Assembly: GCA_036559825.1 (NCBI GenBank)
Contig: DATBSK010000037.1
Coordinates: forward strand, 1-46,797
Length of the DNA stretch: 46,797 nucleotides
Direction: 5' to 3'
Source: Acidimicrobiia bacterium
GTDB lineage: Bacteria; Actinomycetota; Acidimicrobiia; IMCC26256; PALSA-555
In this document: positions 38,315-43,728 of the stretch, in pieces
Layout of the letters: every line of letters starts with the position of its first letter
Position numbering within the stretch: position 1 is the stretch's first letter
Translations under genes and position numbers: made by a program
Notes under the pieces: model-generated
Told to the model about the DNA's origin: nothing
What the model saw: only the letters and a program-made list of their open reading frames with translations
Databases searched by the model: none

Positions 38315-41152
38315 TCAGGCGGTGACGAAGTTGACCAGGCGCCCGGGGACGACCACCACCTTGCGCACGGTCGCGCCGTGGAGCAGGGCCGCGACGCGGT
38401 CATCGGCCCTCGCCGCTGCCTCGACGGCCTCGCCGTCGGCACCGACGGGGACGCGCACCCGACTGCGCACCTTGCCGTCGACCTGCACGGGCACCTCGAC
38501 CTCGTCCTCGACGAGCAACGCCGCATCCGCCTGCGGGAACGGCTCGAACGCAAGCGACTGCGCGTGCCCGAGGCGGCTCCACAGCTCCTCGGCGACGTGG
38601 GGCGCGAGCGGCGCCACCATGAGCACGAGGGGCTCCACGCCCTCGCGCGGTGGTCCCTCGCGACCGCTCGCCTGGGTGAGCCGGTTGTTGAGCTCGGTGA
38701 GCCGCGCGATCGCGGTGTTGAACTTCAGCTCACCCATGTCGTCACGCACCGCGGCGATGGTGCGGTGGAGGATCCGGCGTGTCTCCTCGTCGGCGGCGGC
38801 GTCGGAGACGCGGACCTCTCCCGTGTCCTCGTCGACCACGTTGCGCCACAGTCGCTGCAGGAAGCGGTGCACGCCGACGATGTCGGCGGTGCTCCACGGC
38901 CGGCTCGCGTCGAGGGGCCCCGTCGACATCTCGTAGAGCCGGAGCGTGTCGGCGCCGAAGTCACGGTAGATGTCGTCGGGCGTCACCATGTTCTTCAGGC
39001 TCTTGCCGATCTTCCCGAGCTCGCGTGTCACGCGCTCGCCGCCGTGGAAGAACGCGCCGTCGCGCTCGACGACCTCGCTCGCCTCGACCGCGATGCCGCG
39101 CGAATCGCGGTACACGGGTGCCTGGATGTAGCCCTGGTTGTAGAGCCGGTGGAACGGCTCGGGGCTCGAGACATGGCCGAGGTCGGCGAGCACCTTGTGC
39201 CAGAACCGGGCGTACAGCAGGTGCAGCACGGCGTGCTCCACGCCGCCGACGTACAGGTCGACGCCGCTCGGTGCCATCCAGTAGCGGTCGACCTCGGGAT
39301 CGACGAGCGCGTCCTCGTTCGTGGGATCGAGGTAACGGAGGTAGTACCAGCACGACCCGGCCCACTGCGGCATCGTGTTCGTCTCGCGCACGTAGCGCCG
39401 CGGGCCGTCGCCGAGGTCGAGCTCGACCTCGAGCCACGACTCGGCACGCGCCAGCGGCGGCTCGGGGTCGCTGTCCGCGTCGTCGGGGGCGAGGGCGAGC
39501 GGCTTGAAGTCGTCGAGGTCGGGGAGCTCGACGGGCAGCGCGTGCTCCGGCACCGCGTGCGGGTCGCCGTGCTCGTCGTAGACGATCGGGAACGGCTCAC
39601 CCCAGTACCGCTGGCGACTGAACAGCCAATCGCGCAGCTTGTAGGTGACCGCCGGCGCGCCGTACCCGGACTCCTCGAGCCACTCGTTGATGCGCGCCTT
39701 GGCTTCGTCCACGGGCAGCCCGTCGAGGAACCCGCTGTTGATCGCGGGTCCGTCGCCGAGGTACGCGTCACCCTCGAAACCCTCGGGCGGCTGCACCGTG
39801 CGCACGATCGGGAGCTCGAACTCCTCGGCGAACTCCCAGTCGCGCTCGTCCTGACCCGGCACCGCCATGATCGCGCCGGTGCCGTACCCCATCAGCACGT
39901 AGTCCGCGATGAAGATCGGGATCACCCAGTCGTTCGCCGGGTTGTGCGCGAACGCGCCCGTGAAGACACCGGTCTTCTCGCGACCTTCGGCCTGTCGCTC
40001 GAGATCTGTCTTGCTCGCGGCGAAGTCGCGGTACCGGCGCATGGCCTCGCCCGGGAGGACGTCGAGGCCGAACGTCCCGCGCCAGATCGTCGGGATGTTC
40101 TGCGGCCACTCGGCGGGCACGACGACGTCCACGAGCGGATGCTCCGGCGCCAGCACCATGTACGTCGCGCCGAACAGTGTGTCGGGTCGGGTGGTGAAGA
40201 CCTCGATCTCGACGCCCTCGTGCTCCTCGACCGGGAATCGGATCATCGCCCCGGTGCTCCGGCCGATCCAGTTGCGCTGCATCGTCTTGATCGGCTCGGG
40301 CCAGTCGAGGAGGTCGAGGTCGCGCAGCAGCCGGTCGGCGTACTTGGTGATGGCGAGCTTCCACTGCTCGAGCGGCTTCTTGAAGACCGGGTAGTTGCCG
40401 CGCTCGCTGCGCCCCTCCGCCGTGACCTCCTCGTTCGCGAGGACGGTCCCGAGGCCGGGGCACCAGTTGACGGGCGCCTCGTCCAGGTACGCGAGGCGGT
40501 ACGAGTCGATCACGGCGCCGCGCGTGCGGTCGTCGAGCTCGCTCCAGGGCAGACCGTCGGGGTTCGCGTCGGACACGGGCTCGCGCGCGCCGGTCTCGAG
40601 CTGCTCGACCAGGTCGGCGATCGGCCGGGCGCGATCTGCCTCGTCGTCGTACCAGGAGCCGAAGATCTGGAGGAAGATCCACTGCGTCCAGCGGTAGTAG
40701 CCGACGTCGGTGGTGGAGATGCTCCGGCGTGGGTCGTGCGCCAACCCGAGCGCGCGGAGCTGGCGCCGCATCGTCGCGATGTTCGCGTCGGTCGCGGCGC
40801 GGGGATGCTGGCCCGTCTCGAGCGCGTACTGCTCGGCGGGCAACCCGAACGCGTCGTACCCGAGGGCGTGGAGCACGTTGCGCCCGTTCATCCGGTGGAA
40901 CCGGGCGAACACGTCGGTGCCGATGTAGCCCAGGGGATGGCCGACGTGGAGCCCGGCCCCGCTGGGGTACGGGAACATGTCGAGGACGTAGAGCCGCTGC
41001 CGGTTCCGCATGTCCTCGACGCCGTCGGCGAGCGCGCCGGTGGGGTTCGGGGTCCAGAACGTGTGGTGCTCGTCCCAGTGGTCCTGCCAGCGCGCTTCGA
41101 TCTCGTTCGCGAGGCGCGCGTTGTAGCGGAACGGAGGTGCGGCGTCACTCAT
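38315..41152 (-). CDS. leuS: Leucine--tRNA ligase
   Basis: 945 aa. HIGH-type motif [21 protein letters not shown]-type motif KIGKSLKN, and the CP1 editing domain. Confidence 0.97.
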
Positions 41153-41291
41153 CTCGCGTTCGAGCGTAGTGATACGGGTCGCGAATGCCGGGCGGGGTTG
41201 CGTGTCACACCCGCGTGCGACGCTCCGGAACGTGTGTTCGGTGTGCGAGACGTTCGAGTCGGAACAGGCGACCGGTAACCTGGGCTCCGCC

Positions 41292-41367
41292 GGGGGCGTA
41301 GCTCAGTCTGGTAGAGCGCCTGCATGGCATGCAGGAGGATCCGCGGGTTCGAATCCCGTCGCCTCCA
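41292..41367 (+). tRNA. tRNA-Ala (anticodon GGC)
   Basis: GGGGGCG acceptor with the G3:U70 Ala identity pair; D arm GCTC..GAGC; anticodon arm CCTGC-ATGGCAT-GCAGG; T arm GCGGG-TTCGAAT-CCCGT. My hand fold leaves a 7-nt variable region (AGGATCC), which is unusual for a class I tRNA and needs software confirmation. Confidence 0.8.
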
Positions 41368-41375
41368 CCGGATCG

Positions 41376-41849
41376 TTGTTCACATCGTTCGCCCTCGCAG
41401 GCCTCGTCGCAGGTGAGGGATCGTTCTCCGTCACCAACGACGACCCGCCGACGCGCAAGGACGGGTCGCTGCGTCGCAGGTTCGTCTTCTCCATCACGAT
41501 GGCAAGCCGCGACCGACCACTCCTTGACGCCATGCACGAGCTTTTCGGCGTCGGCTCCGTCCGCGATCAGGCGGCTGCGAACGAACGCTGGTTGCCGACC
41601 ACGACGTACTCCGTGTCGTCGCGTCTGGCGCATCGCGCAGTTACCATCCCCTTCTTCGAGGAGCATCTCCTTCCGTGCGCGAAGCGACGGCAGTTCGATC
41701 GCTGGCGCGCCGAGCTCGAGGCGTACGACCGGCGATACCCGACGCGTATCGGGCTCGGTCCATCGACATGCTCCGAACCAGGCTGCGACATGCCGGTTCG
41801 GGGCAGGGGTCTCTGTCGTTCCCACTACTACCGTGCCACCGGCTACTGA
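41376..41849 (+). CDS. Single-motif LAGLIDADG homing-endonuclease-like protein with a C-terminal C-X4-C-X9-C-X2-H finger (paralogue 1)
   Basis: LAGLVAGEGSF lies near the N-terminus, with the acidic Glu retained. The C-terminus is CSEPGCDMPVRGRGLCRSHYYR. The only start that keeps the motif is the TTG at 41376, 9 nt after the tRNA-Ala 3' end. GC content is lower than in the flanks. Confidence 0.7.
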   Translation: MFTSFALAGLVAGEGSFSVTNDDPPTRKDGSLRRRFVFSITMASRDRPLLDAMHELFGVGSVRDQAAANERWLPTTTYSVSSRLAHRAVTIPFFEEHLLPCAKRRQFDRWRAELEAYDRRYPTRIGLGPSTCSEPGCDMPVRGRGLCRSHYYRATGY

Positions 41850-41853
41850 AGCC

Positions 41854-42279
41854 TTGGGCGAGTTCCTCGGCGGGTTTGTCGCCGGCGAGGGCAGCTTCTA
41901 TCAGTCGGGCGAACCTCCGAAGTTCGTGTTCGCCGTCGGCCTCGGCGCTGTTGACGCCGCAACCTGCGAGCTGCTGAAGACGTTCTTCGGTGCAGGTCAC
42001 ATCACGCACTTTCCTCGCCGCAAGCCGCACTACGACGATGAGGTGACGTTCGCGATCCAGTCGATGCGTGACCATCTCGATGTCACGATCCCATTCATGG
42101 ATGCACATCTACCCGAGTCGTACAAGCGGACGCAGTACCTGGCCTGGCGCGAGGAGCTGCTCGACTACTGCGAGCACCGAGCAAAGCGTCGCCGTGCGTG
42201 CACCGTCGACGGCTGCGATGCGCCACAGCGTGCGCACGGCTACTGCCGTCGCCACCTCTGGACGTTCCTGCGGCAGTAG
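41854..42279 (+). CDS. Single-motif LAGLIDADG homing-endonuclease-like protein with a C-terminal C-X4-C-X9-C-X2-H finger (paralogue 2)
   Basis: LGGFVAGEGSF motif. Blocks shared with paralogue 1: FVF, FG.G, VTIPF..HL, KR.Q...WR.EL..Y. The C-terminus is CTVDGCDAPQRAHGYCRRHLW. The start is the TTG at 41854 (4 nt after the upstream stop) or the GTG at 41833. A 100-nt sample (42001-42100) is 57% GC. Confidence 0.7.
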   Translation: MGEFLGGFVAGEGSFYQSGEPPKFVFAVGLGAVDAATCELLKTFFGAGHITHFPRRKPHYDDEVTFAIQSMRDHLDVTIPFMDAHLPESYKRTQYLAWREELLDYCEHRAKRRRACTVDGCDAPQRAHGYCRRHLWTFLRQ

Positions 42280-42325
42280 TCCGAACTCTTCCCTGCCGCG
42301 ATCTTCCACCGCGTACCCTCGCCAC

Positions 42326-42940
42326 GTGATCGGCGTGATCGACTATCGGGCGGGCAACGCGCCGAGCGTCGGTTATGCGCTGGAGCGTCTCGGCATCGAG
42401 CACCGGCTCGTCGCGGCGCCCGAGGCGCTCGAGACCTGCGACCGCGTGATCCTGCCCGGCGTCGGCGCGGCGCGCGCCACCCTGGACTCTCTTGCCGCGT
42501 CCGGGCTCGTCGCGCCGCTGACGCGGCTCGTGATCGACGAGCGGGTGCCGTTCCTCGGCATCTGCATCGGGCTCCAGGTCCTCTTCGAGCACTCCGCCGA
42601 GGGTGAGACGCCCTGCCTCGGGTGGATCCCGGGAGGAGTCCAACGCTTCGACGACGGCACACAGCGCGTCCCGCAGATCGGGTGGAACGCTGTCCGGCTG
42701 CGCCGACCGCACCCCGTCACGGCCCGATTCCCCGACGGCGGGCACTGCTACTTCGTCAACTCCTACTACGCGGCACCGGCCGACCCTGGCGACGTGCTCG
42801 GCGAGACCTCCTACGGGGTGGAGTTCTGCTCGATCGTCGCGAGCCTGAACATCGTGGCGACGCAGTTCCACGCGGAGAAGAGCGGGGAGCTCGGTCTCGG
42901 GATCCTCGCATCGTTCGCCACCTGGGACCCGTCATGCTGA
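42326..42940 (+). CDS. hisH: Imidazole glycerol phosphate synthase glutaminase subunit HisH-like (class I glutamine amidotransferase)
   Basis: VIGVIDYRAGN ... nucleophile elbow FLGICIGLQVLF ... QFHAEKSG (His/Glu of the triad). GTG start at 42326. Confidence 0.85.
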   Translation: MIGVIDYRAGNAPSVGYALERLGIEHRLVAAPEALETCDRVILPGVGAARATLDSLAASGLVAPLTRLVIDERVPFLGICIGLQVLFEHSAEGETPCLGWIPGGVQRFDDGTQRVPQIGWNAVRLRRPHPVTARFPDGGHCYFVNSYYAAPADPGDVLGETSYGVEFCSIVASLNIVATQFHAEKSGELGLGILASFATWDPSC

Positions 42941-43728
42941 CGAAGCGCCTCATCGCGTGCTTCGACGTCGTCGAGGGCCGGGTCACCAAGGCGCAGCAGT
43001 TCCAGGACAACATCGACGTCGCGCCGGCGGAGGACCTCGCCCAGCAGCTCTACGAGGACCAGATCGACGAGATCGTCTTCTACGACATCCTGGCGAGCGC
43101 CGAGCGGAGGATGATCGACCTCCCCGTGGTGCGCGCCGTCGCGCGCCACGTCTTCGTGCCGTTCACTGTCGGCGGCGGCATCCGCTCGATCGACGACATG
43201 TTCGAGGTGCTGAAAGCCGGGGCCGAGAAGATCAGCGTCGACTCCATGGCCGTGCGGGAGCCCGACATCATCCGGCAGGGCGCCGAGGCGTTCGGACGGC
43301 AGTGCATCGTCCTCAGCACCCAGGTCCAGCGAGTCGGTGCGCGGGAGGGCATCCCGAGCGGGTACGAGGTCTTCATCGACGGCGCCCGTACCGCCACCGG
43401 CCTCGACGCAGTCGACTGGGTCCGGCGCGGCGAGGAGCTCGGGGCCGGGGAGATCGTCGTCAACAGCATCGATCGAGACGGGACCGCGTCGGGCTACGAC
43501 CTCGAGATCACACGCGCGGTCGCGGACGCCGTCAATGTCCCGGTCATCGCGTCTGGTGGGGCCGGAACCATCGACCACATCGCCGACGGGCTCACCGCGG
43601 GTGGCGCGCAGGCCGCGATCATCAGCTCGATCCTCTACTCGCCGCGCTTCGAGCGGAACCTCGGTGTGCGTGAGCTGAAGGATGGGTTGCGCGAGCGCGG
43701 CGTCGCGATGCGCCCGTACCTGGACTAA
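42934..43728 (+). CDS. hisF: HisF-like (beta/alpha)8 cyclase subunit of imidazole glycerol phosphate synthase; possibly non-canonical
   Basis: MLTKRLIACFDVVEGRV ... PFTVGGGIRS ... FGRQCIVLSTQVQRV ... NSIDRDGTASGYDL ... VIASGGAG. The ATG overlaps the hisH end by 7 nt. There is no hisA or other his gene nearby. Confidence 0.82.
   Translation: MLTKRLIACFDVVEGRVTKAQQFQDNIDVAPAEDLAQQLYEDQIDEIVFYDILASAERRMIDLPVVRAVARHVFVPFTVGGGIRSIDDMFEVLKAGAEKISVDSMAVREPDIIRQGAEAFGRQCIVLSTQVQRVGAREGIPSGYEVFIDGARTATGLDAVDWVRRGEELGAGEIVVNSIDRDGTASGYDLEITRAVADAVNVPVIASGGAGTIDHIADGLTAGGAQAAIISSILYSPRFERNLGVRELKDGLRERGVAMRPYLD

Follow-up and report, generated by a model that had tools for sequence, protein, structure and literature searches.

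The contig analysed here (DATBSK010000037.1 of an Acidimicrobiia bacterium, 46,797 nt, referred to below as the window) carries on its + strand a tRNA-Ala(GGC) gene followed by two open reading frames (ORFs), A and B, whose products, as judged from profile searches and structural models, belong to the LAGLIDADG endonuclease superfamily, with I-OnuI-type domains as their nearest relatives. Comparison of this locus with its relatives leads us to favour, with moderate confidence, an SOS-controlled heterodimeric homing-type nuclease that would be translated through a functional tRNA gene. That an essential-type tRNA is nested in frame, and that the same DNA yields either the tRNA, through processing or from an internal promoter, or, by read-through of a LexA-controlled leaderless transcript, a heterodimeric nuclease, we regard as an evenly poised proposition. 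An earlier note on this DNA, made from the sequence alone, had placed the two adjacent ORFs between tRNA-Ala and hisHF, a placement that ARAGORN and Rfam bore out; it was silent on the coding piece that precedes the tRNA, on the in-frame passage through the tRNA and on the LexA box at the start of A.

Reading frame of A across the tRNA-Ala gene

Occupied loci were surveyed with one genome per GTDB species, and 40 loci from 36 species were fetched; in all 40 of them tRNA-Ala(GGC) stands immediately 5' of A. In the window the tRNA gene was located by ARAGORN at 41292-41369 and by the Rfam tRNA model at 41292-41367, both on the + strand (61.1 bits, cut-off 29). Across 37 loci, compensatory changes were found in 14 of the 23 tRNA pairs and the alanine identity pair G3:U70 was present in 36, and on this comparative evidence the nested tRNA-Ala(GGC) is taken to be genuine and functional.

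Translation of A apparently passes through this tRNA gene in frame. The frame of A is open from 41169 to 41849 and that of B from 41329 to 42279, i.e. far upstream and across the tRNA. The start of A is apparently GTG 41232, 60 nt 5' of the tRNA, which gives an extended ORF A of 205 aa (41232-41849, +) based on the conservation of the start-motif frame and on database homologues. This ORF comprises, in order, a 5' piece of the form M/V-C-x-x-C-x-x-F-E (C-x-x-C codons at 41235-41246), a tRNA-encoded linker, a spacer, the LAGLIDADG core and a CCCH zinc knuckle. The start motif (A/G)TG-TGY-N6-TGY is conserved across loci about 60 nt 5' of the tRNA. In 34 of 36 loci it shares the frame of V-A-G-E-G, the anchor within the LAGLIDADG helix, even though the distance between the two takes 14 distinct values (168-246 nt), the tRNA measures 74-79 nt and the post-tRNA spacer 31-100 nt. 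The codon phase of the tRNA differs among lineages and the total length remains a multiple of three; in the tRNA of the window, the D-loop has one extra nucleotide (+1) and the variable loop two (+2), which together preserve the frame. The start-codon frame was free of stops in 23 of 24 loci, and the other two frames in 2 and 6 of the 24. Both frame exceptions, L001 and L030, are MFD-series assemblies, which we take to be long-read, and their frameshifts may be indel errors.

The two Cys residues of the 5' piece were present in 36 of 36 loci, encoded by TGT as well as by TGC; its Glu codons are GAG or GAA, and the Arg at codon 11, which is Glu in the window itself, is encoded by CGG, CGC, CGA, CGT, AGG or AGA and hence by two codon families. 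Such variation in the codons used for the same residues indicates that selection acts on the protein. Database records point the same way: 12 of the 27 top cluster representatives in a representative search were 197-211 aa long and aligned with the 205-aa A from residue 1, and many A gene calls in the databases, 170-225 aa long, start with translated tRNA or with M-C-x-x-C. Because the A and B frames are open through the tRNA, gene calls in the databases are inconsistent, some of them starting within the tRNA ('MEEV.GS.P.SST', 'GAIAQLVER'), and annotation pipelines have given these genes at least three different starts or spurious tRNA-internal 'proteins'.

B is read from GTG 41833 (148 aa, 41833-42279, +), as supported by its orthologues of 147-148 aa, its structural model and its Foldseek matches. 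The TTG starts proposed in the earlier note for both ORFs are unlikely, since B begins at this GTG and the frame of A is conserved back to GTG 41232. The end of A and the start of B overlap by 17 nt in two frames (41833-41849, +), and among the 34 loci in which both genes were mapped about 29 show this offset; a conserved overlap of this kind suggests translational coupling.

Two other routes to the A protein were considered and rejected. A start at the ATG of the anticodon arm cannot apply throughout, several lineages, among them L020, L026 and L031, lacking an in-frame ATG at that position. Excision of the tRNA followed by ligation of the mRNA halves is contradicted by the tRNA lengths, which vary modulo 3, yet the total including the tRNA stays a multiple of three.

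Putative control region at the apparent start of A

The control region was compared in 36 loci aligned on the start codon, which is ATG or GTG in every one. A LexA (SOS/Cheo) box, GAAC-GTGT-GTTC, lies at 41228-41239 (+) with GTG 41232-41234 at its centre. This is the sole occurrence of GAACN4GTTC in the window, and in 1.0 Mb of fetched loci the pattern had 31 matches, of which 17 fall exactly on the A start (in the window and 16 other loci) and 1 more in the remnant locus L049 described below. The box fits the actinobacterial LexA motif CGAACRnRYGTTYC with half-site TCGAACA (PMC2248561), and binding of LexA is predicted. Loci with a second leuS type, and some others, carry CCC-ATG-TGC in place of the SOS box and retain CxxC; the box is a trait of a large subset of the loci, not of all.

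In leaderless actinobacterial promoters a -10 box, TAnnnT, ends 6-7 nt before an ATG or GTG at which transcription itself begins, and a Shine-Dalgarno sequence is lacking. A putative -10 hexamer, GACGCT (family consensus nAnnnT), is found at 41219-41224 (+), 6-7 nt before the start codon, and across loci position -11 is conserved as A and position -7 as T. By comparison with the actinobacterial leaderless promoters, this spacing suggests a leaderless or near-leaderless transcript. Further upstream, the motif TGTCACACCC at 41203-41212 (+; -28 to -19 from the start) forms a low-entropy block of the 36-locus alignment, within which GTGTCACAC is palindromic in the window. TGTCACACCC was found in the loci carrying A/B and in remnant L049 and is missing at empty sites. 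It lies too near the -10 box for a standard -35 element and may act as an operator (perhaps for A/B itself) or as some unusual promoter element.

The putative promoter of the tRNA, TTCGAG - 17 nt - TAACCT at 41253-41281 (+), occupies codons 8-17 of A and lies 3' of the A start; a GCTGGTAnnnT box 12-18 nt 5' of the tRNA is common to occupied and empty loci. A generic sigma-70 promoter scan of 41100-42400 found nothing, and a terminator scan of the same interval gave one terminator-like match, inside B, at chance level.

Fold, active site and zinc knuckle of the A and B proteins

The LAGLIDADG core of A (41385-41735, +; helix LAGLVAGEG), assigned by Pfam, model and Foldseek, matches Pfam LAGLIDADG_1 with E=8e-10 and 40 bits (cut-off 23.1), and B reaches 21.9 bits, 1.2 bits under the same cut-off. 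AlphaFold models built from 40-sequence alignments had a pLDDT (predicted local distance difference test) score of 89.9 for A and 91.4 for B, with the secondary-structure elements in canonical order. Foldseek searches with both models gave a probability of 1.00, E about 1e-8 and TMq 0.62-0.68, the best PDB matches being single domains of I-OnuI, I-GpeMI and I-SmaMI; bI3 maturase and I-AniI were also among the matches of B, and I-CreI variants and I-Vdi141I (3e54) were among the sequence matches. Thus the description of both as single-motif LAGLIDADG proteins held.

Both proteins combine the fold of the superfamily with a motif-end acidic residue and an active-site basic residue. The acidic residue already reported for both is E14 in A (41415-41417; 157-aa numbering), retained in 116 of 116 homologues, and E19 in B (41887-41889), retained in 118 of 120 with one Asp in addition. 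The active-site lysines, K103 of A (41682-41684) and K98 of B (42124-42126), were retained in 121 of 121 homologues each, and K103 of A aligns with I-SmaMI K103 and K262, the lysines mutated in PDB entries 5e5s, 5e63 and 5e67. Each chain ends in a CCCH zinc knuckle, C-x4-C-x9-C-x2-H, at 41769-41825 in A and 42199-42255 in B (both +). All four ligands of the A knuckle are present in at least 120 of 121 homologues, and those of B are equally conserved. The Cys/His tails of both proteins match Zf_WRKY19 weakly, and the knuckle of A also shows a weak match to PHROG families of phage 'HNH endonuclease'. The CCCH knuckle seems, from its distribution in sequences, to be a DNA-binding module that is widespread in association with nucleases and that Pfam covers poorly; proteins P0287, P0344, P0373 and others carry 4-8 tandem C-x4-C-x9-C-x2-H knuckles.

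A and B share 32% identity (BLASTP, E=4e-23), in agreement with the paralogy claimed previously. Most likely, to judge from the sequences, they form a DNA-cleaving heterodimer with an asymmetric site. The heterodimer idea of the earlier note has been strengthened by the near-constant co-occurrence of A and B, by their conserved 17-nt overlap, by the Glu and Lys retained in both, and by natural single-chain A-B fusions (P0273 from locus L121, and P0247). In P0273 (L121 2903-3849) the core of A without its zinc knuckle is joined through an 18-aa linker to the core and knuckle of B; tRNA-Ala(GGC) is again found upstream, the in-frame start is MCSVC, and the neighbourhood contains neither leuS nor hisHF. 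A third architecture was observed in the distant relatives P0308 and P0331, in which chains of 322-368 aa each hold two modules of a LAGLIDADG core plus a CCCH knuckle.

Searches of the databases returned 417 relatives for A and 214 for B, nearly all from Acidimicrobiia metagenome-assembled genomes (MAGs), some of them annotated merely as 'LAGLIDADG family homing endonuclease'. NCBIfam gave no match for the pair. An origin from phage was considered and rejected, as IMG/VR held no relatives of A/B and 50,697 phage records gave only weak matches (30% identity, E=2e-4). These phage matches lie in the Rhodobacter phages RcAqua, RcAquaphina and RcMrWorf (about 48.5-49.3 kb), as LAGLIDADG-like stretches within 'DNA methylase' genes, and may be inserts of the type treated in PMC11855218. 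Likewise, a defence system was rejected, PADLOC giving generic 'homing endonuclease' models only.

Distribution, empty sites and evolution of the module

Among the fetched loci B follows A in most, only about half have hisF close by, and the neighbouring leuS is variable, some occupied genomes having a leuS type only 37-40% identical; in L121 the module stands in an unrelated neighbourhood. The invariant unit is tRNA-Ala + A + B. Residing free-standing beside a conserved tRNA-Ala(GGC), the pair has the kind of location found for homing genes, and the Rfam scan of 41100-42400 gave no intron match, consistent with the earlier description of the ORFs as free of intron or intein context. Two of the checks named in that note, for conservation as coding sequence and for co-occurrence, came out positive: A and B almost always occur together, and close pairs gave ratios of nonsynonymous to synonymous substitution (dN/dS, NG86) of 0.11-0.27 for A and 0.15-0.47 for B, ratios that are approximate with dS near saturation and that indicate purifying selection on both.

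The note had also regarded the pair as a lower-GC islet and the only clearly foreign module of the window. The dip in GC (guanine plus cytosine) content (0.61-0.66 in the A/B stretch against about 0.68-0.73 in the flanks) is modest, has counterparts elsewhere, e.g. at 42800-43250, and gives little support to a recent acquisition. Since 36 species-level genomes carry the module at this same tRNA, it is not a one-off islet, and a foreign islet or recent transfer was rejected. Rather, comparison shows the module to be old, site-specific and widespread in Acidimicrobiia. Six of the MAGs carrying it (L005, L006, L011, L021, L023, L035) are titled Bifidobacteriaceae, Bifidobacterium breve or Burkholderiales, with loci that are Acidimicrobiia-like and leuS 69-82% identical to that of the window; these titles look mislabelled.

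Empty sites were surveyed by a leuS-based scan of metagenome contigs, and none of the 80 leuS loci obtained from these contigs contained A or B. In five empty loci with enough sequence for a judgement (L042, L043, L044, L046, L050) leuS and tRNA-Ala are adjacent, with a leuS 65-74% identical to that of the window, as near as in many occupied genomes; the intergenic region is 57-140 nt long, the GCTGGTAnnnT box is present and the M-C-x-x-C piece is absent. L049 (reverse strand, about 1114-1300) has kept the SOS box, the 5' piece with MCSVCDQFESRMAAGNL, the tRNA and the opening codons of the spacer (QFLPNVL), with A and B gone, and it appears from this arrangement to be a deletion remnant. The leuS tree mixes occupied, empty and remnant loci, and in about 10 occupied loci A or B is truncated or frameshifted. 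These empty sites, the remnant and the decayed copies led us to reject a strictly vertical essential gene. The empty target that the note had suggested, tRNA-Ala followed directly by hisH, was not found; in the empty genomes 1.7-3 kb of unrelated DNA with other genes intervenes before hisH/hisF.

The four loci of the window's clade (window, L003, L023, L033) show a discordance confined to A. B is 68-77% identical in every pair, and leuS and hisF group L003 with L023. For A, the window and L003 share 72% identity and L023 and L033 67%, and the cross pairs share 52-57%, which is the family-wide median. Between the window and L033, nucleotide identity is 85-90% in leuS, 52-58% in A and 70-88% in B. 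In the A coding region (41370-41800 of the window) the closest relatives are as far apart as the most distant members of the family, which is not so for the tRNA, B, leuS or hisF. This pattern suggests that only the A allele was replaced, the break points lying close to the tRNA and to the A/B overlap.

The A/B family has a median identity of 56%, against 72-84% for leuS and hisF. Correlations among the distances of A, B, leuS and hisF were weak (Spearman 0.03-0.28) and are hard to read, the identities reaching a plateau at about 55%; the comparison of the four genomes above gives a clearer picture. Overall, the comparison of the loci depicts the module as dispensable, as decaying in some lineages and as exchanged between lineages, at least with respect to A.

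Proposed model and rival explanations

In the model that we propose, a site-specific, evolutionarily mobile and dispensable nuclease module would be built around the tRNA-Ala(GGC) of Acidimicrobiia. A LexA-repressed promoter would give a leaderless or near-leaderless transcript from or beside GTG 41232, at the centre of the SOS box. After DNA damage, ribosomes would read the M/V-C-x-x-C piece, the tRNA promoter, the entire tRNA-Ala gene, the spacer and then the core of A, B would be produced by coupling via its 17-nt overlap with the end of A, and the heterodimer of A and B would cut an asymmetric DNA site. Because transcripts from the tRNA's own promoter would begin 3' of the A start, they would yield tRNA and little or no nuclease, and the nuclease would thereby be silent outside the SOS response. 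Comparison of loci supplies the folds, the catalytic residues, the tRNA link, the frame, a 5' piece that accompanies A/B, an SOS box placed on the start codon, the patchiness, the decay and the swap of A; from there we infer where transcription begins, that LexA binds, that ribosomes read across the tRNA, that A and B assemble into a heterodimer and cut DNA, and any homing.

Several points weigh against this model. A tRNA folded in a long transcript should be a substrate of RNase P, which would sever the message, so that read-through must win over processing. A possible start 3' of the tRNA exists in about 20 loci, the window among them (TTG 41376), and internal initiation is possible there; some of the frame exceptions and truncations may stem from assembly errors. 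A perfect SOS box was found in only about half of the loci, the LexA consensus used is that of actinobacteria in general and is not derived from the recA/lexA promoters of these genomes, and part of the conservation of the box could be coding, since it spans codons 1-3. The model does not account for the conserved TGTCACACCC motif. Moreover, no target site could be reconstructed: no conserved flank is common to the empty sites, whose 3' flanks are unrelated, and occupied and empty alleles carry the same type of tRNA. Active homing is consequently unproven, and the patchiness could reflect loss plus ordinary recombination.

A more conventional explanation would have A start 3' of the tRNA, at TTG 41376 or its equivalent, on a tRNA transcript that is processed or shared with the tRNA, with the upstream M-C-x-x-C as a leader peptide or DNA motif and the open frame as a by-product of high GC content. 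The TTG of the window is indeed in frame, 7 nt past the tRNA, nine loci have an ATG five codons ahead of the V-A-G-E-G anchor, long accidental ORFs occur in high-GC genomes, and the upstream conservation coincides in part with the SOS box and the promoter boxes. However, 16 of the 36 loci have no ATG, GTG or TTG from the tRNA to the LAGLIDADG helix, and the frame is held in all but two loci over its 14 lengths with the alternative frames mostly closed. The Cys codons are invariant even where the SOS box is absent, and Arg is drawn from both codon families; a separate leader peptide would meet no stop before the end of A, and the 5' piece is restricted to loci with present or former A/B. In light of these observations we consider a start 3' of the tRNA unlikely. 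The catalytic role of the pair could be doubted instead, A and B being non-catalytic derivatives, either a WhiA-like transcription factor (the alternative raised in the earlier note) or a maturase-like pair that binds the tRNA-Ala precursor. The invariable association with one tRNA would suit such a role, LAGLIDADG proteins are known to have turned into regulators (WhiA) and maturases (PMC3384342), and B has bI3 maturase and I-AniI among its Foldseek matches. WhiA and the inactive maturases, however, have lost the acidic and basic active-site residues, which A and B retain at 98% or more of about 120 homologues each and which argue against a WhiA-like protein; in addition, A and B have a single domain per chain and no helix-turn-helix domain, neither matched WhiA in NCBIfam or Pfam, and the same tRNA exists without the pair in related genomes. 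A non-catalytic function is on this account highly improbable.

It is harder to dismiss a domesticated and vertically inherited member of the SOS regulon, serving the host after DNA damage as a nuclease or DNA-binding factor in repair, recombination or regulation and not acting as a selfish element, which we nevertheless hold to be rather unlikely. The LexA box on the start codon, the purifying selection, the almost invariant catalytic residues and zinc ligands, and the maintenance of the locus over deep divergence, including the genomes with the 37-40% identical leuS, all speak in its favour. Against it stand the close relatives entirely without the pair, the deletion remnant, the several truncated or frameshifted copies, the A alleles swapped between lineages, and a family that evolves far faster than its neighbours (56% against 72-84% identity). 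Absence, decay, swaps and fast evolution fit better with a selfish or conflict-related element that can be dispensed with.

If the nested-tRNA model is true, it is categorically unusual. The arrangement would represent a new kind of gene overlap, in which tRNA processing competes with translation on one transcript, and the nested tRNA would act as a switch that silences a selfish nuclease except in the SOS response and would make precise loss of the element difficult. A homing-type nuclease would thereby come under the SOS response, a state in which the cell induces recombination functions. The pair would also constitute a natural two-gene heterodimeric LAGLIDADG nuclease, a type of enzyme so far only engineered, for asymmetric sites, and the split and fused forms within one family would record the step from dimer to single chain. 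In practical terms, the A/B family could supply compact meganuclease scaffolds assisted by zinc knuckles.

Gene content around the locus

The gene order on the + strand is tRNA-Ala(GGC), A, B, hisH and hisF, with leuS divergent upstream on the minus strand (38315-41152). B is identical to the NCBI protein VIH82_02560. The start of hisH is probably GTG 42326, 47 nt past B. The hisH/hisF pair (42326-43728) is separate from the other his genes, and its neighbours include rsfS and nadD. The space from tRNA-Ala to hisH seems to be a slot of variable content.

Comparison with known systems

The A and B proteins resemble I-CreI, I-MsoI, I-CeuI and I-Vdi141I in having one motif per chain of about 150 aa, an acidic residue at the end of the motif and an active-site Lys. 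Function of the I-CreI type requires dimerisation via the LAGLIDADG helices, and A/B are likened to it on this point. In contrast, enzymes of that type are the product of one gene, form a symmetric dimer, reside in introns and lack a zinc knuckle, whereas A and B are two diverged free-standing genes (32%) with CCCH tails, wrapped around a tRNA gene. To our knowledge, no natural two-gene LAGLIDADG heterodimer has been characterised, and our literature search for one found none. By sequence and fold, the nearest enzymes are those of the monomeric I-OnuI family (I-OnuI, I-SmaMI, I-GpeMI, I-LtrI), with which the Glu/Asp and Lys residues align and whose two-domain architecture is mirrored by the fusions P0273 and P0247. 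Members of that family are single chains in fungal mitochondrial introns or rps3 fusions, whereas A and B are separate polypeptides encoded on a bacterial chromosome.

The HO endonuclease carries a C-terminal zinc-finger DNA-binding extension. In yeast, HO represents a free-standing LAGLIDADG nuclease under tight host control (PMC3384342). It is an intein-derived single eukaryotic chain that has been fully domesticated for mating-type switching, whereas A/B are bacterial, two-chain and patchy in distribution. The WhiA/DUF199 proteins share with A/B a LAGLIDADG fold kept in Gram-positive and actinobacterial chromosomes. They are universal single chains of two degenerate domains plus a helix-turn-helix and lack catalytic residues, whereas A/B have catalytic residues and zinc knuckles and are dispensable. 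For the passage through the tRNA, a partial parallel is offered by intron-encoded endonuclease ORFs of fungal mitochondria, in which initiation is borrowed from the upstream exon via an open frame across the junction. There, the upstream element is a coding exon and the intron is spliced out, whereas the sequence that A would read through is no intron and is itself a working tRNA gene. We know of no description of a bacterial gene with a functional tRNA nested in frame, and a literature search for a tRNA nested in an ORF found no precedent; a search combining LAGLIDADG with Acidimicrobiia gave nothing relevant.

SOS control of integrases has been mentioned before (PMC3323433). In LexA-controlled integron integrases, and in the induction of prophages and integrative and conjugative elements, a mobile function is tied to the SOS response by a LexA box in the promoter, as we propose for A/B; no LexA-controlled LAGLIDADG or free-standing homing endonuclease was found in our literature search. 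The A/B module is set apart from the characterised members known to us, and from anything described in the papers that our literature searches returned, by its diverged two-gene pair, its CCCH knuckles, an ORF that straddles a functional tRNA in frame and an apparent start that lies in a LexA box.

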